Shown here piece after piece: positions 13,917 to 32,000 of a stretch of DNA of 32,000 bases; positions within the stretch are counted from its first letter, which is position 1, and every line of letters begins with the position of its first letter. The notes below the pieces were generated by a model, which saw only the letters and a program-made list of their open reading frames with translations, searched no databases and was not told the DNA's origin. Source of the DNA: Trichlorobacter lovleyi SZ (GTDB lineage Bacteria > Desulfobacterota > Desulfuromonadia > Geobacterales > Pseudopelobacteraceae); assembly GCF_000020385.1 (NCBI RefSeq), contig NC_010815.1, positions 1 to 32,000 of the forward strand, given 5' to 3'. Position numbers and translations under genes: made by a program.

Positions 13917-14131
13917 GCTGCTTAACCTCTCAGTTCAGATGATGGATTACTGATTTTTTCCAACTCTATGTCCAATGCCGATACTGACGTCAATATCTCA
14001 AGTAGCGCAACCAGCAATGAAAAGATCAATACGAACAGGCTGACTACAGGATCATTTTTTCAACCAACATCCCGGACTCTTTGTTTCTCCTCAATATTTC
14101 AAAAACGCTAGTTCCCTTCCTCCATAGCGAT

Positions 14132-14359: not shown

Positions 14360-14430
14360 GATGGCTCCACATGTTCCATAAATTGTCACAACTAGCAGGC
14401 CGTTGAAAATCGGCTCGATTTGAGCCTGTT

Positions 14431-14592
14431 TCAATCAGCCGGTTGTTTTTTGAGTTTGTCGTGCTGTTCAGATGTTGCTGTTTTCGGTTTTACTGTGCTA
14501 CGAATGGCACGTAGTGGATGATCTTTGGGTACAAATGATTCAGGTGTTACATAGGCAAAAAGAGCTTCATTCTGGATATTAGTTTCGCGCAT
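14431..14592 (-). pseudogene. Transposase N-terminal remnant (IS5/IS1182-type DUF772 region)
   Basis: The 53-codon ORF starts MRETNIQNEALFAYVTPESFVPKDHPLRAIRSTV... The LF-Y-x-x-E-x-VPxDHPLRxIR block is the conserved N-terminus of IS5/IS1182-family transposases. Similarity stops after about 34 codons and the ORF ends soon after. Confidence 0.45.
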
Positions 14593-14802
14593 AACATTCC
14601 TTAGCAATACCGAGATGTTGTGCGCATAAATATACTAATAAACGGCTGTCTTTACTACTTCAATTTCAACAGCCTGCTAGCGGCTAGATTCGTGATCTTA
14701 AAGATGCAGGTAGATCAATTTTTCAGGCGATACCTAGAGGCAAATGTTATGGGTCTGTTACTCCTCAATAATTAACTTCAAACAAAGATTACGCTATAAT
14801 TA

Positions 14803-15834: not shown

Positions 15835-15984
15835 TTTTTACCTCAACTACTTAGAGTTCATTTTCAGTGTGTCCTTATTGCTCCTTGAAATCATTAGAGC
15901 GGTTCCCCCCCTGCGCTCTATAATACTCACGCTTTTTCGGACAGGTAGTTAAGTTTGGTTTGCCGTAGATTACGGGGGTAATCT

Positions 15985-16272
15985 ATGATGGCGACCATGC
16001 GAACAAAGCGGAGTCCTGAGTTCAAGGCCAAGATAGCCTTGGCGGCTTTACGTGGCGACAAGACGATAAACGAGCTTGCCACCCTCTACAGTGTACACCC
16101 GAATCAGATCACGGCCTGGAAGCGTCAGGCCCAGGAACATCTGGTTGCGGTCTTTGACAGTAAGAAAGCCAAATCCTCCAAGGCTGATGAAAAGCTGCAG
16201 GAGGAACTCTATCGCCAGATAGGCCAGCTCAAGGTTGAACTTGACTGGCTCAAAAAAAAATCTGGCTTGTAG
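15985..16272 (+). CDS. IS3-family transposase OrfA (HTH plus leucine zipper)
   Basis: 95 aa. RSPEFKAKIALAALRGDKTINELATLYSVHPNQITAWKRQ plus the C-terminal heptad LYRQIGQLKVELDWLKKK are typical of IS3 OrfA. Confidence 0.85.
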   Translation: MMATMRTKRSPEFKAKIALAALRGDKTINELATLYSVHPNQITAWKRQAQEHLVAVFDSKKAKSSKADEKLQEELYRQIGQLKVELDWLKKKSGL

Positions 16273-17158
16273 CACCGCCCGCAAGCGTGAGCTGATCGAC
16301 TGGCGTCATCCAACGATCAGTATTGCCCGGCAGTGTGAGCTGCTTGGAGTAAGCCGCTCTTGCCTATACTATCATCCGGTTCCGGCTTCCAACGAGAACC
16401 GGCTTTTGATGCGGCTACTTGATGAGGAATACACCCGGCATCCGTTTCTGGGTGTCATCAAGCTCACCAACTGGTTAAGGAGCCAGGGATATTGGCATAT
16501 AGGCACCCGCAGGGTACGGCGACTGTTACGGCTCATGGGCCTGATGGCCATCTATCCCGGCCCGAATCTAAGCAAACCGGCGCCGGGCCACAAGATCTAT
16601 CCCTATCTGCTGCGCAACGTTGAGGTAGAGCGGGTTAACCAAGTCTGGAGTGCCGATATAACGTACATTCGGCTCAAGACCGGCTTTGTCTATCTGGTAG
16701 CCGTTGTCGACTGGTGCAGCCGGTACATCCTGGCCTTTGAAATCAGCATCACTCTGGAGGCCGACTTCTGCATCGAAGCGCTCCAGCAGGCGTTAACCAG
16801 AGGTACGCCGGAGATATTCAACAGTGATCAGGGCTCTCAATTCACAAGCCCTCGTCACACGGAAATTCTGCACTTGGCTGGTGTCAGAATCAGCATGGAT
16901 GGCAAAGGCAGAGCCCTCGACAACATTTTTGTCGAACGATTCTGGCGCTCGGTCAAATACGAGGAGGTCTACCTCCATGATTACGAATCAGTGCAAGAGG
17001 CCAGAATCGGGTTAAAGCGCTACATCGAGTACTACAACAACGAACGGCAGCATCAATCACTGGGCTACCAGACACCGGCTGAAGTCTACTTCAAAGGTCT
17101 GCTCAATGAAGTTGACCAACTGAAAAACAGGGACAACAACAGGCACGACCAAACTTAA
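16235..17158 (+). CDS. IS3-family transposase OrfB (DDE/rve catalytic domain), probably made as an OrfAB fusion by -1 frameshift
   Basis: DDE core (WSADITYI..., NSDQGSQFTS, ERFWRSVKYEEVY). OrfB is in the -1 frame relative to OrfA, and the overlap contains the A9 run at 16252-16260 (an A AAA AAA type slippery site). Confidence 0.85.
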   Translation: MNLTGSKKNLACSTARKRELIDWRHPTISIARQCELLGVSRSCLYYHPVPASNENRLLMRLLDEEYTRHPFLGVIKLTNWLRSQGYWHIGTRRVRRLLRLMGLMAIYPGPNLSKPAPGHKIYPYLLRNVEVERVNQVWSADITYIRLKTGFVYLVAVVDWCSRYILAFEISITLEADFCIEALQQALTRGTPEIFNSDQGSQFTSPRHTEILHLAGVRISMDGKGRALDNIFVERFWRSVKYEEVYLHDYESVQEARIGLKRYIEYYNNERQHQSLGYQTPAEVYFKGLLNEVDQLKNRDNNRHDQT

Positions 17159-17208
17159 AATCTTCAATTTGCTGTCTTGACAACCGTGAGTAGCTCAGTG
17201 TGCTGAGA

Positions 17209-18677
17209 TAGTCGTCCCTGAAAAAGTCCGGAATTTGCTCAGACGGTGTTGAGTTGAATGGGGGATAGTCTCCCCCAGCTGAGAAATGTCCGTTCTTTTA
17301 CAAGCCAAAATAAGAGGAGCTTGAGCAGCTTCCTCAGGTTGTACCCACAAGCGGCAAGCAGGGCGTTGATCTTGTCACCTTCTGCACCCTTGAGGTGGTT
17401 TCTGTCCATCCGGTGATCAACTTTCAGGTGACCGATGATCGGTTCAATGGCACTGCGTCTCTTGTACCATGCCCATTCACTGGGCTTCATGCTGCTCTTG
17501 CGTTTGTTGGCTAAGTGGACGGTGGTTCCGTTCAGTGAGCTGGGTACTCCCTTGTAGCCTTTGTCACAGTAGGCATTGCCTGGAGTGATGCCGGTTATCT
17601 GAGCTGCCTGTTTCAGCGCTCCCTTGAGCGTATGGCCATCATACGGATTACCATCCTTGGCCTGGGTACCGATGATCCAGTTGTCTTTTGATGTGCTGAC
17701 AATGGATACCTTGCAGCCAAATTCGTATTTCTTGTGACTCTTGCCCTTGGCGATGCAGCTGACTTCTGGAGCATGCAGGCTGTACAGCTTGTTTTTGTCA
17801 TGCTGCTTCTGGTTGAAAATTCTGCGGGACCGTTCAAGCAGGGTAGTCAGTGTCTGATCAGGATTTGCGATCTTTCTGAAAATGTCCCTGATGACTCGGC
17901 CCAGATAGATCTTGAGACGTTTCAGCTCCCGCTTGGCCCGATTCATCTGACGGGCATGCTTGTAACGTCCATGCTTGATGTAGGCCTTCTTGCCCAGACG
18001 CTCATAGCTCTGACGCAACTGAATGCCACGTTCTTTGGCAAGCTTGACCAGTGCAACCCGGGCCTTGTGATACAGTCTGGCATCAGTGGGATAGGCAATG
18101 GCCTTTTCCTGTACCGTGGTGTCTACGTTGACTCGCTCAAGTGACTGCGGTGTGATGTCGTTTCTACGCACAGCGGTTGCAATGGTTGCCTGTAGCAGTT
18201 TCTCTACCCCTTTGGAGCCGATCCGCTTTCTCCACTTTACCAGGGTGGTGGGATCAAGGGGCAGACGGTGCTGGAAGAATTCAAAACCACAGAAGTACTG
18301 CCAGTACGGATTCTCGACAAAGCGGGCAACGACTGATTCATCTGATTCGTTAAAGGCGTGCTTCAGGTAGTGCAGACCAACCAGCAAACGAATCGGTACA
18401 CCGGGACGGCCCATCTTGACTGAGTACAGGGGGCCAAACTCTCTTTCAAAGAACTGCCAGTCGATTTGATCTGCCAGACGATACAGTTCATGCTGGCGAT
18501 CGAGCATCTGATCAAGGCGGGAACGAAACAAGTCGCCCTGGTCAGAAATCTGAACTTTGGGTTGCATGAAATCACCGGAAATTGAAGGATGAACTACTAT
18601 TTCTGGTGATTTTATCAAAGTATAATGCAAATACAAATCAATAATTACAAGTTGTTATAATGCTTCAGGGACGACTA
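17209..18677 (-). mobile_element. IS5-family insertion sequence (about 1.47 kb)
   Basis: Terminal inverted repeats TAGTCGTCCCTGAA (17209-17222) and TTCAGGGACGACTA (18664-18677). The outer TA on each side could be part of the repeat or a 2-bp target duplication. It lies 16 bp from the IS3 right end and 95 bp from the receptor stop at 18773. Confidence 0.8.
17239..18567 (-). CDS. IS5-family DDE transposase
   Basis: Start placed at the ATG at 18567 (MQPKVQISDQGDLF...). It has an InsH-like N-terminal domain (GRPGVPIRLLVGLHYLKHAFNESDE), then the DDE region VDTTVQEKAIAYPTD ... CDKGYKG ... RSAIEPIIGHLK, colinear with E. coli IS5 InsH. Confidence 0.88.
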   Translation of the reverse strand: MQPKVQISDQGDLFRSRLDQMLDRQHELYRLADQIDWQFFEREFGPLYSVKMGRPGVPIRLLVGLHYLKHAFNESDESVVARFVENPYWQYFCGFEFFQHRLPLDPTTLVKWRKRIGSKGVEKLLQATIATAVRRNDITPQSLERVNVDTTVQEKAIAYPTDARLYHKARVALVKLAKERGIQLRQSYERLGKKAYIKHGRYKHARQMNRAKRELKRLKIYLGRVIRDIFRKIANPDQTLTTLLERSRRIFNQKQHDKNKLYSLHAPEVSCIAKGKSHKKYEFGCKVSIVSTSKDNWIIGTQAKDGNPYDGHTLKGALKQAAQITGITPGNAYCDKGYKGVPSSLNGTTVHLANKRKSSMKPSEWAWYKRRSAIEPIIGHLKVDHRMDRNHLKGAEGDKINALLAACGYNLRKLLKLLLFWLVKERTFLSWGRLSPIQLNTV

Positions 18678-18772: not shown

Positions 18773-20647
18773 TCAAAACCTCACCTGCACGCCCCCCAGC
18801 GCACGGATGCCGTCATCGGGATGTCCGTAGTGGTTCTGGTAACGGACATTACACAGGTTGTCAATTTTGGCAAAGATATCTGCCTTGATCTTTTTGTAGG
18901 TCAACGGCTGGGTAACACGAAGATCTGCTGTCAGATAATCGTTCATCTTCTGCATAACCAGATTCTCTGCTGGGCTATAGCGCACACCCTCATAACGGAG
19001 CGATGCTTCCAGGCGCGTTTTTACGTCTGGGATGGTGTACTGTGCCGTCGCCTTTAGCTTGATATCAGGCGTGTAGGGCAGGTCTTTTCCCGTATCCCGG
19101 TTTTTTGAACTCTGATAAATACACGACAGGTCACCGCTGAAACCGGATTCCCAACTTGATTTTGCCGTTACTTCAATGCCTTGCCGCTCGGCTCCGGCTA
19201 TATTGATCGGACGGTAGATAAGATCGGCGCCCCGTTGCGATGTGATCAGATCCCAGGTGTCTACTCTGAAAAGAGTGGCCTGAATCTGTCTGTTTTTGGC
19301 AAAACGGTACTCAAGACTCATATCGTATGAAAGCACCTTTTCGGTTTTTAGGTCTGGATTGCCCCTGCTTTGATCAATGGAGCCGTGTGTACTTTGATAG
19401 AGCTGTTCAAAGGTAGGAACATTGGTTACATAGCCAACCCGCATCTTCAGCAGAGTATTTTGGGTTGCAGCCCAACCAAGACCGAGCACCCCACCAGGGG
19501 TGAAGCCAAAATCATTAGTGATATCGCCACGGGCGCCAGCTGTTGCCGTAATATCTCCAAAACGTTTGTCAAACTGGGCATTCAAGCCGTTTCTGAACCG
19601 GTTGTGTCTTCCCGCCAGGCTGTGTTCATAATTATCAAATTCCGACATGCCGCCAAGCCGGAATTCCCACTTTTCTTGTTCATCAAGCCAACTGGTATCC
19701 AGCTTCAGGCCAACTTTCCGATCATCAAGAGTAGCGGTATAGCCCTGCTGAGATCTGTCCTTCAGGTTGAGCAGATCACCGTAGCTGTTCAGGGTGTAGG
19801 AGCCAGTCTCAAGCAAGGCCCCGGAAATGCGGCCATCAATCGATCCTTTACGGTACTGCTGACGCGCATTGGGGGTTTCATTGTCAATCGGCCCGGAAAC
19901 GCCGTATTCAGCCTGATAATAGCGCCCGTTGACCTCATATTTGTTGCCGTTTTTTATACTGCGATTCCAGTTGAGAGCTGCACTGCCATCGTTACGGTCA
20001 CTGTTGATACGTCTTCCATCACGGTGATTAAAGGTACCGGTTAGCAGCAGGTTGCCGTCTCCAACAGCCAAAGCCTGACTTGCGCTGGTCTGCAACAGGC
20101 CGTATGAACCTCCGGCAGCCTTAATGGAGCTTTTAAGCGTTTCCCCTTTGGTGTCACGCTTGATCTCACGGGTAATAATATTGATGGCGCCATCACTGCC
20201 GCCGGGACCCAGCCAGACCGGAACCGGCGGTTTAAATACCGTCACCGACTCAATCAGTTCGACCGGAATGGCATTCAGTTCCATCCCCCCGCTCTGATTG
20301 CTGTTCATGGGCCTACCGTTCAACAGTATCAGCACGCCGCTGGATTTCCCGGAGCCCCGGATGGCGATGCGGGTACCCATGCCGGAGGTTGGATACACAT
20401 CAACGCCAGGCATGGTTTTTAGAATCTCTTCCAAATTTGAATGGTTCCGTTTGATGATTTCAGCCCGAGTGACGTTGGTGACTTCCTGAGGATAATTTTT
20501 AATATACTCATCCAACCGGTCGGCAGTAACCACCACCTCGCCCAATGCGTAGGAGGATGGCGATCCCTTAACCGTTTCAGCAGCTACGGAACCGGCTGCC
20601 AACAGCACAACTGCTGCAGTTGGCAGTGCAATGGTACGATAGTTCAT
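18773..20647 (-). CDS. TonB-dependent outer-membrane receptor, BtuB-sized (624 aa)
   Basis: Signal peptide (..LLAAGSVAAE), TonB box GEVVVTA, plug domain, a long beta-barrel and a terminal aromatic residue (..GGVQVRF). It is the last gene of the riboswitch-controlled operon. Corrinoid specificity is inferred from context only. Confidence 0.85.
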   Translation of the reverse strand: MNYRTIALPTAAVVLLAAGSVAAETVKGSPSSYALGEVVVTADRLDEYIKNYPQEVTNVTRAEIIKRNHSNLEEILKTMPGVDVYPTSGMGTRIAIRGSGKSSGVLILLNGRPMNSNQSGGMELNAIPVELIESVTVFKPPVPVWLGPGGSDGAINIITREIKRDTKGETLKSSIKAAGGSYGLLQTSASQALAVGDGNLLLTGTFNHRDGRRINSDRNDGSAALNWNRSIKNGNKYEVNGRYYQAEYGVSGPIDNETPNARQQYRKGSIDGRISGALLETGSYTLNSYGDLLNLKDRSQQGYTATLDDRKVGLKLDTSWLDEQEKWEFRLGGMSEFDNYEHSLAGRHNRFRNGLNAQFDKRFGDITATAGARGDITNDFGFTPGGVLGLGWAATQNTLLKMRVGYVTNVPTFEQLYQSTHGSIDQSRGNPDLKTEKVLSYDMSLEYRFAKNRQIQATLFRVDTWDLITSQRGADLIYRPINIAGAERQGIEVTAKSSWESGFSGDLSCIYQSSKNRDTGKDLPYTPDIKLKATAQYTIPDVKTRLEASLRYEGVRYSPAENLVMQKMNDYLTADLRVTQPLTYKKIKADIFAKIDNLCNVRYQNHYGHPDDGIRALGGVQVRF

Positions 20648-22250: not shown

Positions 22251-25200
22251 TTACCGGTTTCGTCTGAATCCGAAGCCTATCAACCCCACCAGTCCCACAA
22301 AACCCAGTATGAACAGCCAGGGGATCGGAGCCGAGGCCGCGCCGCTCTGTTGCGCCCCGGTTTCTTTCATCTCAAACCCTTCCACCTGCTTTCCCTTTGC
22401 CGCCTTGCCACTGCCGTCAGGGGCCGCGCCGCTTGCCCCCTGTTTGCTCGGTTGCGCCGTTGTCTGCGCTGCGGACTGCCTACCCTGCTGTCCGCTTCTG
22501 GCTGCATCCGGCTGTTTCATGTTTTGCAGCGCCTGTTTGAAGCCGGGGGCCAACGGTTTCAGACCCGGCACAGAGAGCAGGGTGGCGGTGGTAAATTCGG
22601 TCAGTTGCGGGTTGTTGCAGGTATGATCACAGCAGGCCAGCCCCACTTCCTGAACCGTTTTTGCATACTCCTCTGCCAGTTTTTCAACCACTTGGCTGTC
22701 CGGCTTCCAATACTGCTTGCGCACCGTCTCCAGCATCCGGGCCACCACTGACTGATAGGCCCACATATTTTTTGACTTGCGGAACATATCTTTAATCCCC
22801 AGGCCGTTGCGATCCAGCACCCAGGTTTCATGCATCTCCTGCCATTTGGCGGCATCCACCGCCTCCGGCACGGTTACCTGCCAGCCCCAAAGATGTTCCG
22901 TCACCTTGTCCACAAAACGTGCCCCGGCGTAGCCTTCCTTCATCATCGCCTTGATCCACTCCGGGTTCAGGTAGCGGGAGCGCATCTCCCGCCCCATCAT
23001 CTTTTCAAGGGTCTCCTGCACCGGCTGCTTCGGGTTGGTCATGTTGGTGACAAATACCTCTGGCGTCTTGCCGTCCACGGCCCGGATCGCCATGGCGGTG
23101 CCCCCCAGGTACTGAAAGAAATCGTCATTATCCAGGGTGGCAATAACATTGGAAGAACGGCTGTGAATGGCGATCTTGCTGCCGGACAGCGCGTTCTTCA
23201 GCAGGGTGTCCCCCAGCTTCTTGCCGTTATGTTCGGCGCTGTCACCCCAGAACCCCTGGCCGTAGAGGTGGCTCATCCGCATGAAGTAGACATCAACTAC
23301 CTGTTTTTCATTGTCCCAAGTATTGGAAGCTACAATCACCTTGTCCAGATTGGTGCCGTAGGCTCCGGACGGCTCGGTAAAGATGCGTACCGAGGCCAGC
23401 CGCTGCGCCTTTTCCTCCGAGACCCCTTTTGTCAGCAGCATCCTGCGGGTCTTCTCGACATTGCTGCGGATCAGGTTGTCCACTTCCTGCTGATCACGCG
23501 CTGTACTGACCGACTTGTCCAGCAGATCCATCAGGTTTGGAAACAGGTCGCGGTAGAGACCGGAGGGGACCATGGTGACATCAATTCGACCACGCCCCAG
23601 CTCGCCACGGGGGATAACTTCCACACCCTGCACCCGCCCCCTTTCATCCCACTTGGGGCGCACCCCCATCAGGTACATGATCTGCGATTCCATCACCCCT
23701 TCATGGCGGATGGTCTCGGTGGCCCAGATGTTGAAGGTCAGCTTGTCCGGGTAGACACCGTGACGTTTCCGATAACCGTCAATCAGCTCCTGCGCCAGTT
23801 TTTTCCCGGTGTTGTAGGTGCCGGGTGAGGGAACAAAGGCAGGGTCAAAGGAGTAAAAGTTCTTGCCGGTGGGGAGCGAATCCGGGTTCCTGATCGGGTC
23901 ATTGCCGCTGCCGGAAGGGATATAATTCCCGGCCAGGGCAGCTACGAAGGAATCCAGCTCCCGTTTGCCGCTGGCCTCAATGGCCTGTTCCAGGGCGGCA
24001 ATCCGCTTTTCCCGCTCGGCAGGGGTAAGGTTTTTCTCTATGGCGACAATTGCCTCTGCCGTACTGCGGCGGTAGCCTGCTTCCGGAGATCTGCCAAAGG
24101 TATGCAGACCGAACGGCGAAACCTTCTCCCCGATCTCCTTCAGGTAGTCGTCCAGCTCTTCTGCCTGCTCCGGGGTGCTGATGCTCGTTAGCTTCAGATC
24201 GGTCAGTATCCCGGTCTTGCGGGCCAACGTATTGATATCCTCCAGTTTTGCTGCGGCAAGCTGGGGCGATTTCTCACGGGCGGCGGTGTAATCGCTGATC
24301 AGGGCAGCAAGCAGCTTTGCCTCACGATTCATCCCGGACTTGTCCAGGGGGGGCGTCATGTAGTCAATAACCGTTGCCATGCCGCGCCGCTTGGCCTGCA
24401 GACCTTCACCCACATCATCCACGATGTAGGGGTAGATGTTGGGCAGTTCCTGAATCAGCAGCTCTGGCGGGTCTTCGCGGGTAAAACCGACCTCCTTGCC
24501 TGAAAGCCACTCATGGGTGCCGTGGGTGCCGATATGGGCCACGGCATCGGCCTTGAAGCCCCGTTTCAGCCAGAGATGAAAGGCGATATACTGGTGGTGC
24601 GGGGCGATATGGATATCGTGGTACAGCTTCTTGATATCCTGCTCCCACCCCCGCGAAGGCTGGGGGGTGAAGAGGATCTTGCCGTAACGAACGCCGGGCA
24701 GTACAATAAATTTTCTCCCCTTGGGATCGCTCCAGGTCATGATTTTCGCCTGATCCGGTTCGCCCCAGTCCTTGATCACCGACCTGCGGAACCTGTCCGG
24801 CAGCTCCATGAACCAGCTTTTGTAGACCTGTACCGGCAGCAGCAGGGCATGGCCGCTTCTGGCCAGCCGGTCTATCTCAGCCGGGGCCCAGTTGCCGATA
24901 TTGCGACCATAGGCGTGGACATCATCAAAAAGCTGGTCTTTGGAGACAGCCGTGACACCGGCATCGTACCCTTCAGCCTTCAAGCGGGCCAGCAGCTCAT
25001 ACAGGCTTTCCGGCATGACATTCAGGTAGGCAGCGCCGATGTTCTGTTTGCCCGGCGGATAGTTGTAGTAGATCAGGGCGATATGTTTGTCGCGGTTCTG
25101 CTTCTGCTGCAGGGCAAGCCAGCGTTTGACCCGTTGGGTCAGACGCTCGATCCGTTCAGGTATCGGGCGGGTCTCCACATATTCCATCCCGCTGGCCTTG

Positions 25201-26351
25201 TCCTTTATCCGTTCCTTGCTGGCCACCACGGTGGGCTGAATGATCCCCGCCAGTTCCGGCAAGCCGATGGAAGAACTACGCTCGAAGATATCCAGGCCAA
25301 CCGGTGACTTCTCCCACTCCTCCCTTGACTGGGAATGCAGGGTGACCGCATCAATAACCGGCACCCCGAGCCGGGTCAGGATCGGTACGGCCCGCTGCGG
25401 GGTAGTGCCTACCTTCAGGGAGATCCCGACAACCACCTGCACCCTGGCCTTGCCATTTTCATCAAACAAAAACTGCTCCACCGTTTTTTCCGACGGATAG
25501 CCGTAGACCGGCAGCACGTTCAGCCCCTGTCTTTCAAGCGAATCAATCAGACTGTCCAGCAGGGCTGTCTCGCCGTTGTCCACCAGATTCTTGTAAAACG
25601 GTATGCCGACCCAGGGGCCGGGCCTGCTGCGGTAGAGGCGCTGATACTCTGCAAAGCTGGTAACGGTGCGATGGCCGTCTTTCAGATAGATACCGAACTG
25701 GGGAACCTGGGCAGGGGGCACTGCCTTTACGGCAATACCGCAATCCCGTTGCAGCAGATACAGCACCATGTTGACGGCGTTATCCAGCCCTCCCTGCTGC
25801 ATGTATGAGGCAACCGTCCGGTCGTTTTGTAGCCCCAGATCCTTGTCGTCCTTGCCGTACATGCCGCCCACAGCGTAGACCTTCATCCCTTGCCGCATCA
25901 TGGCCTGCAGCGACGGTTTGAACGGCTCCAGGCCACGGCGATCCATGATATGGACGACACTGAATCCTCTGCTGCCTGGCTGTAAGGCCGGGAGCGCTGC
26001 GGCATCCCCTTTGGTCAGCACCCCAAACCGCACCTTGGCGCTCAGCTCCGGGTGGCGCTCCCTGATTGTCTGCACGGTTTTAACCGCTAGGCTGCTGTTG
26101 TAATCACCCAGGATCAGCCGGGCAAGAACCGGCGGTTGTGCAGGGGCTGCGCTGTCGGACGGGAGCGGCAGCAGAAGTATTGCAAATAAAGCCGCCAGCA
26201 TCAGCCACGCATTCTTTCGATTCCAGTTCAAGGATGATCTCAAGGCGGCGAGGAATTTGGCGACGCAGGCGTACACGAAGTACGTTGAGGAGCCAACGAC
26301 GAGCCAACGAAGAGAGCGCCTTGAAATGGAATCGGAATTATTCCGGAACAT
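22251..26351 (-). CDS. CobN / Mg-chelatase-H family protein, membrane-anchored at both ends (HmuS-like, not a canonical cytoplasmic CobN)
   Basis: 1366 aa with CobN-family blocks through the core (e.g. HIGTHGTHEWLSGKEVG). There is an N-terminal hydrophobic segment (AWLMLAALFAILLLPLPS) and a Gln/Ala/Gly-rich linker. A C-terminal TM helix plus basic tail follows (PIPWLFILGFVGLVGLIGFGFRRNR). The ATG at 26351 has GGAAGGTG upstream inside the previous gene. Alternative starts are the TTG at 26231 or the ATG at 26201. Confidence 0.85.
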   Translation of the reverse strand: MFRNNSDSISRRSLRWLVVGSSTYFVYACVAKFLAALRSSLNWNRKNAWLMLAALFAILLLPLPSDSAAPAQPPVLARLILGDYNSSLAVKTVQTIRERHPELSAKVRFGVLTKGDAAALPALQPGSRGFSVVHIMDRRGLEPFKPSLQAMMRQGMKVYAVGGMYGKDDKDLGLQNDRTVASYMQQGGLDNAVNMVLYLLQRDCGIAVKAVPPAQVPQFGIYLKDGHRTVTSFAEYQRLYRSRPGPWVGIPFYKNLVDNGETALLDSLIDSLERQGLNVLPVYGYPSEKTVEQFLFDENGKARVQVVVGISLKVGTTPQRAVPILTRLGVPVIDAVTLHSQSREEWEKSPVGLDIFERSSSIGLPELAGIIQPTVVASKERIKDKASGMEYVETRPIPERIERLTQRVKRWLALQQKQNRDKHIALIYYNYPPGKQNIGAAYLNVMPESLYELLARLKAEGYDAGVTAVSKDQLFDDVHAYGRNIGNWAPAEIDRLARSGHALLLPVQVYKSWFMELPDRFRRSVIKDWGEPDQAKIMTWSDPKGRKFIVLPGVRYGKILFTPQPSRGWEQDIKKLYHDIHIAPHHQYIAFHLWLKRGFKADAVAHIGTHGTHEWLSGKEVGFTREDPPELLIQELPNIYPYIVDDVGEGLQAKRRGMATVIDYMTPPLDKSGMNREAKLLAALISDYTAAREKSPQLAAAKLEDINTLARKTGILTDLKLTSISTPEQAEELDDYLKEIGEKVSPFGLHTFGRSPEAGYRRSTAEAIVAIEKNLTPAEREKRIAALEQAIEASGKRELDSFVAALAGNYIPSGSGNDPIRNPDSLPTGKNFYSFDPAFVPSPGTYNTGKKLAQELIDGYRKRHGVYPDKLTFNIWATETIRHEGVMESQIMYLMGVRPKWDERGRVQGVEVIPRGELGRGRIDVTMVPSGLYRDLFPNLMDLLDKSVSTARDQQEVDNLIRSNVEKTRRMLLTKGVSEEKAQRLASVRIFTEPSGAYGTNLDKVIVASNTWDNEKQVVDVYFMRMSHLYGQGFWGDSAEHNGKKLGDTLLKNALSGSKIAIHSRSSNVIATLDNDDFFQYLGGTAMAIRAVDGKTPEVFVTNMTNPKQPVQETLEKMMGREMRSRYLNPEWIKAMMKEGYAGARFVDKVTEHLWGWQVTVPEAVDAAKWQEMHETWVLDRNGLGIKDMFRKSKNMWAYQSVVARMLETVRKQYWKPDSQVVEKLAEEYAKTVQEVGLACCDHTCNNPQLTEFTTATLLSVPGLKPLAPGFKQALQNMKQPDAARSGQQGRQSAAQTTAQPSKQGASGAAPDGSGKAAKGKQVEGFEMKETGAQQSGAASAPIPWLFILGFVGLVGLIGFGFRRNR

Positions 26352-26676
26352 AGATCACCTTCCCGTCCTTTAACTGATAGGCGGTGCCCAGCCGTTCACC
26401 CTCCCCGGAGAGCCGCTTGTCCGTCACCTTGCGAACCTTGATCTCTTTGCCTTTTTTGCTGATTACCTCGATCTTGCCATCAGCCGTCTTCTTGGTGATG
26501 GTTACCTCGGACTTCGGGTCCATCAGGTCCAGCATGTTGTAGGCCATGAACAGGGCGATCATCATACTGACGATGAAGACCACGCTGACATCAAACAGGT
26601 TGGCCACCCCGGAAATAGGATCTTCAAGGGGCTCATCATATTTATCAAAACGGTTGCGGCGTTTAAGATAGCGCAT
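26338..26676 (-). CDS. ExbD/TolR-like small membrane protein (DUF2149-type)
   Basis: 112 aa with a basic N-terminus and a single TM helix carrying an Asp (VANLFDVSVVFIVSMMIAL, compare Exb[12 protein letters not shown]). A small Lys-rich soluble domain follows. Overlaps both neighbours. Confidence 0.65.
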   Translation of the reverse strand: MRYLKRRNRFDKYDEPLEDPISGVANLFDVSVVFIVSMMIALFMAYNMLDLMDPKSEVTITKKTADGKIEVISKKGKEIKVRKVTDKRLSGEGERLGTAYQLKDGKVIYVPE

Positions 26677-27259: not shown

Positions 27260-27957
27260 TTGGTATCTCCTTTGCGCATAAAAAAGCCTGCCAGCAGCGC
27301 CGCAGCCAGCAGTATCACCAGCAGCAGGGACTGGCTGCTGTTCCCACCCGCTGCTGCCGGTTGCATCTCCTTCAGAAATGAACCGTACATCCCTTTGGCC
27401 TGCTCAACCTTGGCCGGCAGAAACAGTGAGGCGATGAAATACAAGCCGATGGTGATCATGGCCAGGCCCAGCGCCGGGATGTTGTTGCCGCTTTCTCCTG
27501 ATTTTGTAAGCAGCATCACCAGCAGGGTCATAACGGCAAAGCTGCTGCCCAACACCAACCCCACGGCCCAGGGCAGCAGCGGCAGGCTGTGCAGGGCGGT
27601 CCAGGTTGAGAAGGTCATGGCGGTCAGACAGACCGGACAGGGGATCAGCAATGCCAGGGAGGAAGCCGGAGAACAGCGCCTACCCGGCTTCCCGATCAGC
27701 CAGCCGCCCCAGACGATCATTCCCAGCGCCATAACTCCATGCAGCCAGGGGCCGCCCTTGAGCAGCGGTTCAAGCAGCTTCAGCAACTGTACGGCCAGCA
27801 GGGCAATCAACTCAAACAGCAGCAGATACAGCCCCAGAGTCAACGCGATTCCTTTGCGGCTGACCTGACCATATCCCAGTCCGGTGCCGGTCTTGACGGC
27901 AAAGATTCCCAGGCTGAAGAGGGTGCCGCCGACCCAGAGCAACAGATTCAGATCCAT
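27256..27957 (-). CDS. Polytopic (about 7 TM) membrane protein with an intramembrane CPVC motif (DUF2162-like putative transporter)
   Basis: Highly hydrophobic. The motif LLIPCPVCLTAM lies inside predicted TM4. Start placed at the ATG at 27957 with AAAGGAAG 6 nt upstream. The ORF track begins at the TTG at 27972, overlapping the receptor stop. Confidence 0.65.
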   Translation of the reverse strand: MDLNLLLWVGGTLFSLGIFAVKTGTGLGYGQVSRKGIALTLGLYLLLFELIALLAVQLLKLLEPLLKGGPWLHGVMALGMIVWGGWLIGKPGRRCSPASSLALLIPCPVCLTAMTFSTWTALHSLPLLPWAVGLVLGSSFAVMTLLVMLLTKSGESGNNIPALGLAMITIGLYFIASLFLPAKVEQAKGMYGSFLKEMQPAAAGGNSSQSLLLVILLAAALLAGFFMRKGDTK

Positions 27958-27968: not shown

Positions 27969-30182
27969 TCAAAACTTGAAGCCCAGTTCTGCATAACAGG
28001 AACGGCCCGGCGCCAGGGAGGAAGAGTAGTAATGCTCGTCAAACAGGTTGGTGACAGCCAACGAGGCGGTGGCCCAGGCGGTAATTTTGTAACGCAACTT
28101 CAGGTCCACGGTGAAATAGGGGTCATTGCTGCCCTGTACGCCGTTGACGGTGTCGGTGTTGGTGTCGCTGGAATAGCGTTTACCCACATAGCGACCGGTT
28201 GCTGTGGCCCCAAAACTGCCGTAATCCAGATCAGCCCCCAGATTGAACATATGTTCCGGCACATCAGTTACCCGTTTGCCTACGGTTGCGGGAACTGCAC
28301 TGTTTTCCTTGATGGTTGCGTCGGTGTAGGTGTAATTGGCAAACAACCGCAACAGGGAGTCAAACTTCTGTTCTGCCTCAAGCTCTACCCCTCTGCTTTC
28401 GGCCTTACCTGCGTTGGCCTTGTCTTTCCAGGTGGGGGTGGTTGAAGTGCTGTAGATCAGGTCACTGATGTAGTTCTCAAAATAGGTGGCGGTAAATTTG
28501 GAACCTTTCCAGAGCCGCTGGCTGACACCTGCATCCCAGGAAATGACGGTTTCCGGTTTCAGGTTGGGGTTTCCGGCGTAGGTGGTGCCGCTGGAGGTGG
28601 TCCAGGTGCGGTAGAGGTCATACACTGTGGGCGCCCGAAATGCCTTGCCGCCGGATAATTTGAACGTGGTTGTGTCAAACGGTCTGTATACCAGCGCGCC
28701 TTTGGGGCTGAAGGCATCGGCGCTACGGGAACCGTAGGTTTGAGGATAGCCAACACTGCCGACCTGATTGGCATAACCGTCAAAGGTATCCCACCAGTCC
28801 TGCCGGAATCCGGCAAACAGGGTCAGTTTGTCCAGCAGAGCTATTTCACCTTCGGCAAACAGGGCAAAGGTGCGGTCGGTACCCTTTGATTCGTAGGTCA
28901 GGGCTCCTTTGGAGTTTTCATCCTGCCAGTTTGAGAGATTGTGCTCTCTGGAATGGGACCAGCCGGTGCGGTAGGCGCCACCCACGGTCAACAGATGCTT
29001 ATCCAGAATCGGTATTGAAGCCTGAATATCGGCATTAAAGGCGGCTGCCGGGGTATCGGACAGCTTGCCCGGCCCGCCGTTACGGGTACCGCCGTTGGGC
29101 GGCGCAGCCGAGGTGGGCGTGGTTCCCCAACTGGTCATCTGATCAAGATACCCCAGATTCAGCTTGTACTTGACCGTTGCCAGCTCTGTTTCAGCGCTAA
29201 ATCCATACAGGTGCTGATCACTGCCGCCATTTCCCCCGAGAAAGGATGCCTCCCGTACTGTGCCGTAGCTCCAGACTTCAGCGCCGCTACTGTTGCGCAG
29301 GTAGGTGGCCGGATTGTCGTAGGAATATTCGCCGGTTGACTTCATAAAAGTCAGCTTGAGCTTCGTATTGGAAGGAAGTTCGAGCTCTGCCTTGGCGGTC
29401 AGGTTGTCCTGCCAGGCACCGTTTTTGCCTTTGTCTCCCAGCCGATAGCGGGTTGCGCCGGTATAATCAGTGGTCGGCTCCCAGCCAGTGATACCAGCAG
29501 TCGGTTTGCTGCTTTGTACGTTGGTGTCACTGCGGTAGCCGTCGGTGGCCAGATAGTCGTTATGCAGGTAGAGTTTGATTTTCCCCAGATACTTGTCACC
29601 GTAGGAGGCGGCAACCCGTCTGGTATTTTGCATGCCGTTGGGACTGTCCAAAGCAAAACCGTAACCGCCAGTCAGGGTTAGTTCCCGCTTTTCAGGCATT
29701 CGGGTGATCATGTTGACCACCCCCCCCATGGCATATCCGCCGTAAAGACTGGAGGCCGGACCTTTAACCACTTCAATCCGTTCAAGGCTGCTGGGTGAAA
29801 TACCTACGGACACCACCGATCCGGCGTAAGGGCTGTTGATGGTAATGCCGTCCAGCATCACCAGCGTGCGGGACTGCCCCGGAATACCGCGCAGGGTAAT
29901 GGCAGACATCCGGTCCATCATCCCTTTGCCCCGAGTAGAGAGTACGCCAGGAGTGGTATTAATCGCCTCGTCTACTGTCGTGATATTCCGTTTTTCCATT
30001 TCCTCCTTTGTTACAACGGAGACACTGCCCGGTGCCGTTGCCAGATCCTGTTCAGTTCTGGTTGCCGTCACCACAACCTGTTCAAGCCTGGCTTCGCCAG
30101 GAACAGTCTCCGCCTGTGCGGTGCTGCACGCTGCCAGCGCCAGCCCCACCACCACGGCACACTTCTGCCTGTTTCTCTTCAT
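27969..30182 (-). CDS. TonB-dependent outer-membrane receptor (737 aa)
   Basis: Signal peptide (..ACSTAQAE), TonB box EQVVVTATR, plug (ITLRGIPGQSRTLVMLDGITIN), beta-barrel and terminal ..ELGFKF. It is the first gene after the tandem riboswitch leader. Confidence 0.88.
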   Translation of the reverse strand: MKRNRQKCAVVVGLALAACSTAQAETVPGEARLEQVVVTATRTEQDLATAPGSVSVVTKEEMEKRNITTVDEAINTTPGVLSTRGKGMMDRMSAITLRGIPGQSRTLVMLDGITINSPYAGSVVSVGISPSSLERIEVVKGPASSLYGGYAMGGVVNMITRMPEKRELTLTGGYGFALDSPNGMQNTRRVAASYGDKYLGKIKLYLHNDYLATDGYRSDTNVQSSKPTAGITGWEPTTDYTGATRYRLGDKGKNGAWQDNLTAKAELELPSNTKLKLTFMKSTGEYSYDNPATYLRNSSGAEVWSYGTVREASFLGGNGGSDQHLYGFSAETELATVKYKLNLGYLDQMTSWGTTPTSAAPPNGGTRNGGPGKLSDTPAAAFNADIQASIPILDKHLLTVGGAYRTGWSHSREHNLSNWQDENSKGALTYESKGTDRTFALFAEGEIALLDKLTLFAGFRQDWWDTFDGYANQVGSVGYPQTYGSRSADAFSPKGALVYRPFDTTTFKLSGGKAFRAPTVYDLYRTWTTSSGTTYAGNPNLKPETVISWDAGVSQRLWKGSKFTATYFENYISDLIYSTSTTPTWKDKANAGKAESRGVELEAEQKFDSLLRLFANYTYTDATIKENSAVPATVGKRVTDVPEHMFNLGADLDYGSFGATATGRYVGKRYSSDTNTDTVNGVQGSNDPYFTVDLKLRYKITAWATASLAVTNLFDEHYYSSSLAPGRSCYAELGFKF

Positions 30183-30360
30183 TACTTTCCCCCTCGGGTT
30201 GATATGCAGATGGAGCCGTCTTCCGGCTTAAGGCTACCTACTTACCCACCTTCCCAGGAATGCTCCCAGTGGTTGTTTCACCTCGTGGTGACGGGCTTTC
30301 GTTCCTATTACGGCTGCGGGGCAGCGGGGGTATTTAACCCCTCTTCCTCAACTCCATCTG
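30183..30360 (-). promoter_or_regulatory. Second, divergent cobalamin-riboswitch-like aptamer (30207-30360) plus SD region, in tandem with copy 3
   Basis: The minus-strand RNA is closed by a perfect 9-bp helix, CAGAUGGAG (30360-30352) with CUCCAUCUG (30215-30207). Inside it reads GAGGAAGAGGGGUUAAAUACCCCCGCUGCCCCGCAGCCGUAA .. CCACUGGGAGCAUUCCUGGGAAGG .. AAGCCGGAAGACGGCUCC. This is colinear with the AGGGAA-GGUGA-CCCGC-CUGUAA, CACUG-GGGAAG and B12-box blocks of the upstream aptamer. GAGGGGGAAAG (SD) and the AUG follow within 25 nt. Confidence 0.6.
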
Positions 30361-30375
30361 TTTGAAAACAAGCAC

Positions 30376-30413: not shown

Positions 30414-30488
30414 TCCGTATTCAAAGTCGAACCGTTCAACCGGTTACTCTCCCTTTACCGTCGGGAACTGCGAGTAACAACAATCAGC

Positions 30489-30650
30489 GGCAGGTCTTCT
30501 GACTTGCGAGTCATCCTCCGGGCGTCTTCCCAATCTAAATGATCAGTGACGTTGTTGCCCTTCGTCATCGCTTACAGCGGCGGGTCCGCGGGGGAATAGC
30601 TCGTCAGAGCGTCACCCCTCTTCCCTTTTCACCCTTGCGGGCACCGTGAT
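30489..30650 (-). promoter_or_regulatory. Cobalamin riboswitch aptamer, copy 3
   Basis: Minus strand reads GGUGCCCGCAAGGGUGAAAAGGGAAGAGGGGUGACG..UUCCCCCGCGGACCCGCCGCUGUAAGCG..GUCACUGAUCAUUUAGAUUGGGAAGACG..AAGUCAGAAGACCUGCC. A TTGACA hexamer at 30739-30744 is a possible -35. Confidence 0.9.
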
Positions 30651-30752
30651 TCGTGCATATTCAGTTGTGTTTGTACTGCAGGTTGCCGGCTACCATCTTC
30701 ATAACCGGCTGATATCAAATGCCAAGTAATTTCGATGATGTCAATGACTATT

Positions 30753-31787
30753 TCATAGTTCGTCCCTGTGCAGGGCAACCTGGCTGCGGCTGGCCAGCAC
30801 GGCCCATGAATGGGAAGGGAGCTTGATCAACCTGGTATGCGTAAGGCCAACCTCCTGCAGCAAGGCGCTGGTGTCAATGCTGCTGTAACAGCGCCCGTTC
30901 CAGGTGTTGACCAGCATGTGCAGGTCGTACAGGGCACCGTACAGGTTGGCATCGCGAAAAAAGTCATGTACCACCAGCAGGCCGTCGGGGGTAAGCATCC
31001 CGGCTGCCTGTTCCAGCAGGGCCCCGTTCTCCTGCGGTCCATAGCAGTGCAACAGGTTTGACAGCAGTACCAGCCCCGCTGTGCCGTGGTGCGCTGCAGT
31101 ACAGGCGCTAAACTCCTGTTGATCCAGGATGTTGCAGGGCAAGACCGTCAGCTTGCCCGGCAGATCCTGGCACATTATCCGTACGCAGACATCCGGCAGG
31201 TCGCAGGCAATCCCCTGCCAGTCCGGATAGCGCTGGAGAAAAGCGCGGAGATAAGCCCCCTCACCAGCGCCGATGTCCATAATGATCCCCTGGGGCGGCA
31301 GCAGCGGCGCAAGGGCGTGCCACAACTCTGCGGAGCGGACACTGGCGGCCTCGGCCATGCTGGCCTGAAAAAGCTCCAGCCGCTTGTGGTAGGCATCCTG
31401 CGGTTGGGGCTGGGTCAGGGCCCCCTGTCCCTGTTGCAGGATAGTGCCGACTTGACGCCAGTTCTCGATCAGCAGCGGTTCAAACAACAGGGTGTTACGC
31501 TGATTTTCAGTGCTTGCGCGGCTGAGAAAGCGTTGGCTGAAGGGGCTCAGCCCCAGCCGGTCATCACGTTGTTGCAGCAGCCCAAGGGTGCAGAGCAGGT
31601 CCACAAACCGTCCGGTCTCGTCAGGCTGCAGGTTGAGGCAGTCAGCCAGTGCCGCAGGGGTGTCAGAGCCCGCCTCCACCGCATCAACGATCCCGCTGCG
31701 GACTGCCTCGGCCAGCAGGTAAAACTGGCGGTAGCCCGCGAGCATGGCGCTGAACCCGGCAAAGGAGTCATCCACAATCGGGATCAT
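30753..31787 (-). CDS. SAM-dependent O-methyltransferase (family-2 type with N-terminal dimerisation/winged-helix domain); BzaC-like candidate
   Basis: Start placed at the ATG at 31787 (MIPIVDDSFAG...), 7 nt after the upstream stop. The 45 extra ORF-track codons overlap the ThiC-like gene. SAM motif I DIGAGEGAY, plus LLSNLLHCY and the N-terminal LLAEAVRSGIVDAV...LGLL helix-turn-helix-like domain. Confidence 0.75.
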   Translation of the reverse strand: MIPIVDDSFAGFSAMLAGYRQFYLLAEAVRSGIVDAVEAGSDTPAALADCLNLQPDETGRFVDLLCTLGLLQQRDDRLGLSPFSQRFLSRASTENQRNTLLFEPLLIENWRQVGTILQQGQGALTQPQPQDAYHKRLELFQASMAEAASVRSAELWHALAPLLPPQGIIMDIGAGEGAYLRAFLQRYPDWQGIACDLPDVCVRIMCQDLPGKLTVLPCNILDQQEFSACTAAHHGTAGLVLLSNLLHCYGPQENGALLEQAAGMLTPDGLLVVHDFFRDANLYGALYDLHMLVNTWNGRCYSSIDTSALLQEVGLTHTRLIKLPSHSWAVLASRSQVALHRDEL

Positions 31788-31794
31788 GGCCTTG

Positions 31795-32000
31795 TCAGCA
31801 CTTGTCCCCGCACAGATGCTCCGCAAACAGCTTGCCTGCGCCGCGGGAGGCGCAGAAGTTGCCGCACATGGTGCAGGTGGCCTCATCCTCAGGGATACGG
31901 CTGGCGCGGATCGCCTTGGCATCCTCCGGGAAAAGGGCCAGTTCGAACTGCTTCTGCCAGTCCAGGTCCCGCCGGGCCTTGGCCATGGCCTTGTCCCGCT
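31795..32000 (-). CDS. ThiC-family radical-SAM-like protein, C-terminal end only (ThiC or its paralogue BzaF/BzaA); partial at window edge
   Basis: RDKAMAKARRDLDWQKQFELALFPEDAKAIR...ATCTMCGNFCA matches the ThiC C-terminus pattern (RD.A.SKAR..F.W..QF.LSLDPE.A ... CSMCG.FC). The frame is open to the window edge. Confidence 0.7.
   Translation of the reverse strand, partial: RDKAMAKARRDLDWQKQFELALFPEDAKAIRASRIPEDEATCTMCGNFCASRGAGKLFAEHLCGDKC

Follow-up and report, generated by a model that had tools for sequence, protein, structure and literature searches.

The window analysed here, a stretch of 32,000 nt from Trichlorobacter lovleyi SZ (NC_010815.1, positions 1-32,000) to which all coordinates refer, carries an operon whose fifth gene encodes a protein of the CobN/ChlH/HmuS superfamily. 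Nine genes follow one another in the order TonB-dependent receptor (TBDR), DUF2162, MotA-like, DUF2149, CobN-like, ExbB, ExbD, TonB and TBDR (Table 1). Neighbouring genes overlap or lie no more than 44 nt apart, and a promoter and terminator scan, with counts at chance level, gave no excess of terminator-like sites in the operon over shuffled sequences. Tandem cobalamin riboswitches, both above the Rfam RF00174 gathering score of 31.5 over model positions 1-189, precede the first gene; expression of the operon is therefore expected under B12 scarcity. The CobN-like protein is a BtuS/HmuS-like protein, distinguished by a cobalt-type site, riboswitch control and an archaeal-type module of partner genes. 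An earlier note on this DNA had described the protein and the MotA-like/ExbD-like pair upstream of it; that setting stands as far as the pair goes, and it left out the riboswitches, the DUF2162 gene, both receptors and the HmuS and BtuS precedents.

The 1366-amino-acid (aa) open reading frame matches Pfam CobN-Mg_chel over its full length (E=0, 1029.5 bits, cut-off 24.5), and both this profile and the residues of the cavity place it in the class I chelatase large-subunit superfamily (CobN/ChlH/BchH/HmuS; PF02514). The best sequence matches in the PDB are HmuS (9d26, 477 bits), CobN (9uk9, 450 bits) and ChlH (389 bits). A Kyte-Doolittle scan found AWLMLAALFAILLLPLPS at residues 48-65 (score 1.83), with three Lys/Arg immediately upstream, and IPWLFILGFVGLVGLIGFG at residues 1343-1361 (score 2.16), followed by an RRNR tail; a weaker hydrophobic stretch covers residues 17-35 (score 1.51). 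Ahead of the C-terminal stretch is a low-complexity linker (residues 1271-1338) containing 13 A, 12 Q, 10 G, 7 K and 6 S in 68 residues. Both hydrophobic termini are present in all full-length members of a set of 120 homologues (58-91% identity), whose interior hydrophobicity maxima reach at most about 1.97, and the architecture is common to nearly all of the best 150 clusters at 50% identity in a HMMER search with the C-terminal half as query. Sources of homologues named so far include Trichlorobacter, Thermodesulfovibrionales/Nitrospirota, Syntrophaceae, Desantisbacteria, an anammox planctomycete and Caldimicrobium; Trichlorobacter thiogenes is the closest cultured relative (92% identity). 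It is clear that the CobN-like architecture with two hydrophobic termini is real and well beyond chance. All of its parts that had been read from the DNA beforehand, namely two hydrophobic termini, a CobN-like body of about 1250 residues, the linker and the RRNR tail, were found, and the termini are kept in full-length homologues.

Table 1. Features of the operon, in order of transcription; residue numbers are those of the CobN-like protein (TM, transmembrane; MITE, miniature inverted-repeat transposable element).
Feature	Position (nt)	Strand	Basis
Cobalamin riboswitch aptamer 1	30472..30663	-	RF00174 107.3 bits, E=3e-26, full length
Cobalamin riboswitch aptamer 2	30197..30371	-	RF00174 65.5 bits, E=3e-14; ends 15 nt before TBDR 1 ATG
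TonB-dependent receptor 1 (TBDR 1), 737 aa, first gene	27969..30182	-	Pfam Plug + TonB_dep_Rec_b-barrel
DUF2162 six-TM membrane protein, 238 aa	27256..27972	-	Pfam DUF2162 E=1.7e-63
MotA/ExbB-like three-TM proton-channel subunit, 198 aa	26663..27259	-	Pfam MotA_ExbB (PF01618) 40.3 bits, E=3e-10
DUF2149 protein, 112 aa	26338..26676	-	Pfam DUF2149 E=2.6e-33
CobN/ChlH/HmuS-superfamily protein, 1366 aa	22251..26351	-	ATG start; Pfam CobN-Mg_chel (PF02514)
MITE-like insertion, residues 6-47	26211..26336	-	126 nt, 42 codons, in frame, stop-free
N-terminal h-region AWLMLAALFAILLLPLPS, residues 48-65, signal peptide or signal anchor	26157..26210	-	Kyte-Doolittle 1.83
Active-site motifs HIGTHG (residues 606-611) and VGEG (residues 647-650)	24402..24536	-	Alignment to 9d26
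LDNDDFFQYLGG, residues 1073-1084, CobN-type DDxxQ	23100..23135	-	Alignments, clade conservation
CCDHTC motif, residues 1240-1245, directly after domain VI	22617..22634	-	Conservation
Low-complexity Q/A/G/S/K linker, residues 1272-1338	22338..22538	-	Composition; low conservation
C-terminal TM helix ASAPIPWLFILGFVGLVGLIGFGF, residues 1339-1362, and RRNR tail	22254..22337	-	Kyte-Doolittle 2.16; conserved
Canonical ExbB, 144 aa	21772..22206	-	Pfam MotA_ExbB 101 bits
Canonical ExbD, 127 aa	21408..21791	-	Pfam ExbD 91 bits
TonB, 244 aa	20681..21415	-	Pfam TonB_C 66.5 bits
TonB-dependent receptor 2 (TBDR 2), 624 aa, BtuB-like, last gene	18773..20647	-	Pfam Plug + barrel

Between codon 5 and the signal-peptide h-region the CobN-like gene contains a MITE-like insertion, whose 19-nt terminal inverted repeats (26215-26233 and 26319-26337) are 89% complementary and whose RNA folds at -43.9 kcal/mol (z=-2.7). 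Related loci are labelled L001, L002 and so on, L001 being that of T. thiogenes; the insertion has a copy at the same site in L001 and is not in the relatives L002, L003, L020 and L025. Without it the N-terminus reads MFRNN-AWLMLAAL..., an ordinary signal peptide. The h-region begins within the first 25 residues in 84 of 112 orthologues, an AxA follows the h-core in 67 of them, and the archaeal (Methanomethylovorans) homologue has a textbook signal peptide. The ancestral N-terminus thus looks like an ordinary, poorly conserved signal peptide that was apparently cleavable. Residues 17-35 were considered as a second N-terminal TM helix, which would flip the topology; this was rejected because the stretch is encoded by the MITE and is missing from relatives. 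A hydrophobic N-terminus following a basic region had been described before, and the hydrophobic part of that description holds; the basic region, along with the weak first stretch, belongs to the MITE-encoded residues and is absent from close relatives. A second MITE copy in T. thiogenes (L001:5625-5750), 85% identical and in the opposite orientation, lies inside the first cobalamin riboswitch there and lengthens the Rfam match to 306 nt.

Conservation was computed by region on 117 aligned sequences. The top-residue frequency and entropy are 0.80 and 0.85 for the catalytic body, 0.74 and 1.03 for the C-terminal helix, 0.52 and 2.05 for the linker and 0.43 and 2.42 for the N-terminal h-region; the C-terminal helix is therefore conserved almost as well as the catalytic body, and the N-terminal helix is the least conserved part of the protein. 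Within the clade the C-terminus follows the motif S-S-A-P-I-P-[YW]-L-F-x-x-G-F-x4-G-L-x3-G-[FW]-[RK], and the tail matches the end of the archaeal CobN model NF004645. A sequence-specific role for this helix is supported by such conservation. Known sorting signals were also considered (PEP-CTERM, GlyGly-CTERM, PGF-CTERM and LPXTG, with NCBIfam models); only LPXTG gave a match, which was sub-threshold (E=0.66), and the idea was rejected.

Positive charges lie beside both helices on the cytoplasmic side, which by the positive-inside rule puts the body outside. The single TM helices at both ends, facing the periplasm, are as in the HmuS family, the orientation here being that given by this rule. 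When expressed in E. coli, P. gingivalis HmuS was found in the inner membrane with periplasmic exposure, according to protease-accessibility data (PMC13227078). On sequence grounds the T. lovleyi protein is shown as one that is predicted to be exported, with the C-terminal helix tethering it to the inner membrane and the body of about 1250 residues in the periplasm. The periplasm-facing body proposed in the earlier note thus gains in support, from the charges, the signal-peptide-like N-termini of orthologues, the CCDHxC motif and the fusion to a periplasmic MotA-like N-terminus (both described below), and the published topology of HmuS (PMC13227078, PMC6460266). The accompanying suggestion that the N-terminal helix docks into a stator in the manner of TonB fared less well: this helix is the least conserved (entropy 2.42 vs 0.85 for the body), looks cleavable and has the MITE-extended region ahead of it. 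Since it is the C-terminal helix that is conserved, docking of the N-terminal one is unsupported; the C-terminal helix is oriented opposite to TonB.

The three genes directly upstream encode the putative partners. In the DUF2162 protein a PCPVC motif (residues 111-115, nt 27628-27642) lies in a TM helix and is kept unchanged in 16 orthologues, and the DUF2162 of Methanomethylovorans has the identical PCPVCLTA; this protein is a candidate metal or redox conduit. The motif was also considered as a general feature of HmuT-like proteins, and this was rejected, as it is missing from Bacteroides HmuT and from the 240-aa proteins of L031-L033. The MotA-like protein, which exceeds the PF01618 cut-off of 22.9 bits, has TM helices at residues 17-35, ~100-124 and 140-158 and belongs to the MotA/TolQ/ExbB family. 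Its TM2 carries a G-L-M-G-T motif; here GPALGLMGTLIPMG is near-invariant, with T112 invariant, and is kept in the archaeal homologue. Only marginal PDB sequence matches were found for it, to PomA and to the MotA/TolQ/ExbB-domain protein 8vvn. The layout of the DUF2149 protein is like that of ExbD and TolR, with a basic cytoplasmic N-terminus, one TM helix and a small beta-rich periplasmic domain. Its TM aspartate, Asp29 (NLFD, nt 26578-26601), aligns with the TM aspartate of ExbD and, with 56 other columns, is invariant in 17 sequences. Pfam ExbD (PF02472) does not match this 112-aa protein, only DUF2149 does; a PDB sequence search gave no significant match, and an AlphaFold2 model built from 17 homologues was poor, with a predicted local distance difference test score (pLDDT) of 55. 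Of the MotA-like/ExbD-like pair named previously, the first member is therefore matched by Pfam MotA_ExbB, and the second is ExbD-like in its TM aspartate but not by its Pfam family.

In loci where the identity of the CobN-like protein is 57-78%, that of the DUF2149 protein is 77-100%. Start and stop codons overlap by 14 nt at both the MotA-like/DUF2149 (26663-26676) and the DUF2149/CobN-like (26338-26351) junctions. The second overlap, which the earlier note had taken as a sign of translational coupling, is conserved across the family together with the overlapping ATG, and the coupling is therefore genuine. The Tyr-Val codons in the invariant DUF2149 C-terminus ...IYVPE supply the ATG of the CobN-like gene, and each reading frame thereby constrains the other.

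The order DUF2162, MotA-like, DUF2149, CobN-like is invariant in about 19 bacterial loci with enough flanking DNA. An identical four-gene order occurs in Methanomethylovorans, an archaeon without TonB, TBDR or outer membrane, where the module adjoins genes for eIF2-gamma, Spt4, Rpb7 and S24e; DUF2149 has been linked to TolQ in methanogens (PMC9425974). Furthermore, MotA-like, DUF2149 and CobN-like genes are found without a TBDR in Firmicutes-like contigs and in Methylosinus. In protein P0480 (L029 and L030, 6001-10245), the DNA of whose gene is identical in two assemblies from separate sequencing runs, an HmuS-type body is followed by a short linker and a complete MotA-like protein in an in-frame natural fusion. 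The MotA-like part replaces the C-terminal helix of HmuS in the same out-to-in orientation, and the operon reads hmuY-hmuR-fusion-DUF2149, without HmuT. In T. lovleyi a canonical ExbB-ExbD-TonB set coexists with the MotA-like/DUF2149 pair in one operon. Because of this canonical set, the TonB-less archaeon, the TBDR-less contigs and the fusion, the pair is probably more than a spare ExbBD, and these observations together with the invariant synteny strengthen the view, already put forward, that it is a dedicated partner of the CobN-like protein. As had been noted, no AAA+ partner is encoded nearby: no ChlI/ChlD/CobS/CobT-like gene is present in the window and nine orthologous loci (232 kb), and a Walker-A scan of the same DNA returned only ABC, conjugation and OLD-type ATPases.

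In the alignment to 9d26 the HIGTHG and VGEG motifs correspond to His538 and Glu577 of HmuS; both motifs and D1076 of domain V are near-invariant in the 117 sequences. In Brucella CobN the His/Glu/Asp residues of the superfamily bind two Co2+, H554 and E593 being among the Co2+-binding residues (bioRxiv 10.64898/2026.07.21.739949). Throughout the clade LDNDDFFQYLGG replaces LSLDHxxEFMGG, the motif defined for the HmuS family (PMC12583661), with Asp in place of His1209 and Gln in place of Glu1212; the form in CobN is LDSDDYYQF. The Met-rich insertion in domain IV of HmuS is absent (HmuS 684-902 is unmatched, and residues 755-763 of the query span the gap). The equivalent of the HmuS site-1 ligand Met79, M136, is conserved in 112 of 117 sequences; that of His254 is Val or Ile, with His in 0 of 117, and Arg256 of the HGR motif is not conserved. 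Directly after domain VI, C1240, C1241, H1243 and C1245 of the CCDHTC motif are each at least 97% conserved, the archaeal homologue having CCHHTC, and the motif could be a metal hand-off or redox site. PCPVC and CCDHTC are co-conserved in the two partners from Geobacteraceae to a methanogen, and are missing from Bacteroides HmuT and B. theta HmuS respectively; together they could form a metal relay or, alternatively, a thiol relay like CcdA/DsbD carrying electrons to the periplasmic enzyme.

From the Val/Ile at the His254 position, the CobN-like LDNDDFFQYLGG, the lack of a Met-rich insertion, the equivalents of Co2+-binding residues of CobN and the existence of paralogues adjacent to CbiMNQO, cobalt seems more likely than heme iron to be the metal concerned. 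The module is co-located with cobalt importers in the window and in T. thiogenes, and CobN-like paralogues likewise in an ANME-2-type archaeon. In that case (L040, an ANME-2/Methanosarcinales-type contig) 3-4 surface CobN-like paralogues of very large size, with PQQ beta-propeller, PKD and CarboxypepD_reg domains, cluster directly with CbiM-CbiN-CbiQ-CbiO, and no MotA/DUF2149 pair is found there.

Periplasmic proteins of this kind have precedents. The Bacteroidota operon hmuYRSTUV encodes HmuS, a CobN homologue with a single TM helix at each end, whose activity as a membrane-bound heme dechelatase dependent on NADH was demonstrated in 2025 and whose cryo-EM structure is 9D26 (PMC12583661). BtuS1 and BtuS2 of B. 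fragilis were predicted in 2019 to be periplasmic and membrane-anchored (PMC6460266), and for the BtuS family of Rodionov 2003 a role in metalloporphyrin salvage was proposed, as cited in PMC6460266. Hmu-like operons behind cobalamin riboswitches were described by Meslé 2023, who gave HmuU/HmuV the role of ExbB/ExbD for HmuR (PMC10100974); a literature search found no paper proposing that HmuU/V drive HmuS. The periplasmic CobN-like architecture has thus already been described for HmuS/BtuS (Rocha 2019, Nath 2025 and the 2026 paper on P. gingivalis HmuS, PMC13227078) and is not new in kind.

The likeness to HmuS (9D26 of B. thetaiotaomicron; HmuS of P. gingivalis and B. fragilis, the latter BtuS2) extends to a six-domain class I chelatase body, an N-terminal signal or TM helix, a C-terminal TM helix, a periplasmic location and the lack of an AAA+ partner, to conserved equivalents of His538, Glu577, Asp1208 and Met79, and to genes for a TonB-dependent receptor, a MotA/ExbB-like protein (HmuU) and a DUF2149 protein (HmuV). 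Unlike HmuS, however, the T. lovleyi protein has CCDHxC, Val for His254, Asp for His1209 and Gln for Glu1212 and no Met-rich insertion, and its six-TM partner, unlike Bacteroides HmuT, is a true Pfam DUF2162 with PCPVC. Nor is hmuYRSTUV complete here: HmuY is lacking, the order is R-T-U-V-S instead of Y-R-S-T-U-V, and there are an extra ExbB-ExbD-TonB set and an extra TBDR. The operon is, unlike Bacteroides hmu, under tandem cobalamin riboswitches, and its taxa are Desulfuromonadia, Nitrospirota and others rather than Bacteroidota. With the BtuS family, as that family is known from citing work, and with the riboswitch-controlled hmu-like operons of B. fragilis it shares a CobN-like protein distinct from CobN/ChlH, encoded next to btuB-like receptors under B12-riboswitch control, predicted to be periplasmic and membrane-anchored and proposed to act in metalloporphyrin or corrinoid salvage; the two flanking TBDRs and tandem RF00174 fit the BtuS type in the same citing literature. 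The clade is phylogenetically separate from the Bacteroides BtuS proteins.

CobN of CobNST (9UK9, 7C6O) has the same fold, His/Glu/Asp ligands and LD(S/N)DD(Y/F)(Y/F)Q motif, and scores only slightly below HmuS. CobN is, however, a soluble cytoplasmic protein of the aerobic cobalt-late pathway, powered via CobT by the AAA+ CobS hexamer, whereas the T. lovleyi protein is predicted to be exported and membrane-tethered. All NCBIfam CobN and BchH equivalog cut-offs are missed (for CobN, TIGR02257 638 vs 822, NF004644 867 vs 1248 and NF004645 900 vs 1619), and CobN sensu stricto was rejected on this ground, on the export signal and C-terminal TM helix, on the lack of CobS/CobT in the window and nine orthologous loci and on the presence of CbiK in the window. 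Since the window encodes the anaerobic CbiK route, by which the host makes B12, there is no need for a CobNST cobaltochelatase. Closer in organisation is the archaeal 'CobN' of Methanosarcinales (NF004645 type), which has the same four-gene order, a signal peptide and a C-terminal TM helix with basic tail, and shares PCPVCLTA, CC(D/H)HTC and the DUF2149 and MotA-like motifs; it differs in its length of 1700-2090 aa with extra surface domains and in lacking a riboswitch, TonB and TBDR. The partner pair itself resembles the 5:2 stators ExbB-ExbD, TolQ-TolR and MotA-MotB in combining a three-TM MotA_ExbB protein bearing a conserved TM2 Thr with a single-TM partner bearing a seemingly essential TM aspartate and a periplasmic domain, and in being encoded by adjacent, overlapping genes. 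It is unlike them in that DUF2149 is undetected by the ExbD Pfam model and has a shorter periplasmic domain than ExbD, and in that the conserved client, instead of TonB, TolA or peptidoglycan, appears to be an enzyme with a C-terminal out-to-in helix.

The reading that we favour, though at a little under an even chance, is that of a B12-repressed system which acts on imported cobalt tetrapyrroles in the periplasm and of which the stator pair forms part, the substrate and the energy coupling being the conjectural elements. When B12 is short, a cobalt tetrapyrrole (a corrinoid or Co-porphyrinoid) or similar chelate would reach the periplasm through the TonB-dependent receptors, and there the CobN-like enzyme would act on it at the CobN-type His/Glu/Asp metal site. 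The likeliest reaction would be removal of the metal, as HmuS takes Fe from heme, and dechelation, named as a possible chemistry in the earlier note, is supported by this analogy (PMC12583661). The metal might then pass via CCDHxC to PCPVC of DUF2162 and into the cell, or else enter via CbiMNQO. The MotA-like/DUF2149 pair would be a proton-driven stator that engages the enzyme at its conserved C-terminal helix and domain VI end, supplying work that ATP cannot give outside the cytoplasm; it is at the latter end that the AAA+ adaptor CobT grips cytoplasmic CobN, contacting the last helices of domain VI (bioRxiv 10.64898/2026.07.21.739949). A bolder version, which seems distinctly less probable and on balance unlikely, is that DUF2162, MotA-like, DUF2149 and CobN-like proteins are one ancient machine, from methanogens to Geobacteraceae and Bacteroides, in which a 5:2 stator mechanically drives an extracytoplasmic (de)chelatase through its C-terminal helix and domain VI, replacing the AAA+ motor (CobST/ChlID), and the metal, cobalt in this clade, is passed through the Cys motifs into the cell.

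Several points weigh against a stator-driven cobalt dechelatase. To our knowledge no enzyme removes cobalt from a corrin ring, and the reaction has no biochemical precedent. The split between DDxxQ and DHxxE does not track cobalamin riboswitches, the DDxxQ loci L031-L033 having none and L038-L040 likewise, and the motif therefore serves as supporting evidence only. As the model of DUF2149 is poor, its likeness to ExbD is judged from topology and the TM aspartate. Some modules (L038 and the P0480 operon) lack DUF2162, the search for an AAA+ partner covered the window and nine orthologous loci, and the Cys motifs could equally be a thiol relay delivering reducing power for HmuS-type reactions. 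Moreover, recombinant HmuS turns heme into protoporphyrin IX in vitro with NADH alone, without HmuTUV (PMC12583661), so that a motor is not needed for the chemistry of heme dechelation.

The last of these points also suits an alternative in which MotA-like/DUF2149 is a divergent ExbB/ExbD whose task is to energise TonB together with both receptors, the CobN-like enzyme working without energy input or with reducing power only. This is the role given to HmuU/V by Meslé 2023 and Nath 2025, and the TM aspartate and GLxGT motif are those of ExbD and ExbB. In L004, L007, L010, L011, L017 and L022, furthermore, a TonB gene adjoins the module with no canonical ExbBD nearby, as this explanation predicts. 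Yet the same ordered module exists in an archaeon that has neither TonB nor TBDR nor outer membrane and, TBDR-less, in Firmicutes-like contigs; the T. lovleyi operon already has its canonical ExbB-ExbD-TonB, and the fusion ties the channel to an HmuS-type enzyme and not to TonB. We therefore regard the divergent ExbB/ExbD as unlikely to be the whole explanation; a dual role of the pair in diderms is possible.

A comparably low probability attaches to a second alternative, that the CobN-like protein is a periplasmic receptor or chaperone that hands an intact corrinoid or other tetrapyrrole to DUF2162, the stator driving this importer in place of BtuFCD. No BtuFCD-type ABC importer is encoded in the operon, class I chelatase head and neck domains are similar to periplasmic binding proteins and in HmuS bind a non-substrate heme, the Met79 equivalent M136 is 96% conserved, and it has been suggested in the literature that HmuTUV may move heme across the inner membrane. 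The catalytic His/Glu/Asp residues and the whole body cavity are, however, the most conserved parts, which speaks for catalysis having been kept; His254, the second heme ligand, is absent, and a CPxC in a six-TM protein is more in keeping with the passage of an ion or of electrons than of a 1.3-kDa corrinoid.

It is less probable still that the protein is a plain HmuS orthologue, an anaerobic heme dechelatase harvesting iron. HmuS is its best PDB sequence match and shares its architecture and partner genes, and TBDR 1 scores best against the heme/hemoglobin receptor family of NCBIfam (236 bits, with TonB-B12 at 203 bits, both under cut-off). Nevertheless, CobN matches nearly as well, four features that define HmuS fail (the Met-rich insertion, His254, His1209 and Glu1212), there is no HmuY, and cobalamin riboswitches are found here and not at the B. 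theta-type hmu locus. Finally, a forward chelatase outside the cytoplasm, inserting cobalt into imported metal-free corrinoids of the hydrogenobyrinic-acid type with a proton motor replacing CobST, would fit the DDxxQ metal site, the B12-riboswitch control and the motor-like partner, as forward class I chelation needs energy (CobNST, ChlHID), but is very improbable in view of the cobalt-early CbiK route of the host, the lack of an inner-membrane corrinoid importer in the operon and the lack of evidence for metal-free corrinoids being available as a substrate in the environment.

That periplasmic CobN-like proteins can act as dechelatases was established only lately, and for heme iron in gut Bacteroidota alone. 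The locus is a second version, widespread in environmental anaerobes, with B12 riboswitches and a cobalt-type active site, and its four-gene core is common to methanogens that have no TonB system. If a stator does drive the enzyme, MotA/ExbB-type motors would gain a new class of client, and the AAA+ chelatases a counterpart powered by protons. If cobalt is freed from environmental tetrapyrroles, this would be a new route of cobalt acquisition, relevant to the B12 economy of organohalide-respiring, metal-reducing and methanogenic communities.

A cobalamin riboswitch, tandem or single, lies upstream of the cluster in 9 of 14 other loci (L001, L002, L003, L005, L009, L015, L017, L020 and L024), spanning Geobacteraceae, Desulfopila, Syntrophorhabdaceae, Syntrophobacterales and Desantisbacteria; of the five without, L004, L007 and L010 have little upstream sequence. 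Tandem aptamers recur in L001, L003, L017 and L020, which suggests a sharper or two-input response to B12. In T. thiogenes the operon stands among riboswitch-controlled MetE and CbiMNQ genes and adjoins CobD/CobQ. A plasmid database search for the locus gave no match.

The best NCBIfam match of TBDR 2 is TonB-B12 (137 bits, under cut-off). The rest of the window contains transposases, a riboswitch-controlled CbiM-CbiQ-CbiO cobalt importer (10809-13601, preceded by a cobalamin riboswitch at 13558-13752 (-)) and an anaerobic cbi cluster (1080-10884) that includes the class II cobaltochelatase CbiK; a further cobalamin riboswitch, 823-1003 (-), lies downstream of this cluster and presumably controls a gene past the window edge. 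The uptake operon is separated from the cobalt transporter and cbi cluster by a low-GC stretch within 14000-18650 (37-41% at 14-16 kb) that holds an HlyD-like gene (14803-15834), an integrase-type transposase (16235-17158 (+)) and a DDE transposase (17239-18636 (-)). T. thiogenes has MetE and a regulator in this interval instead, and the region has therefore been rearranged by mobile elements. Directly upstream of the riboswitches is a gene of the O-methyltransferase family (389 aa, 30753-31922 (-)) with weak similarity to tetrapyrrole methyltransferases of the BchU/CrtF type. T. thiogenes also has, between a tandem cobalamin riboswitch and CbiM-CbiN-CbiQ (L001 21002-23559), a gene for an outer-membrane channel (Pfam Phenol_MetA_deg), and the channel may be an outer-membrane entry route for cobalt.

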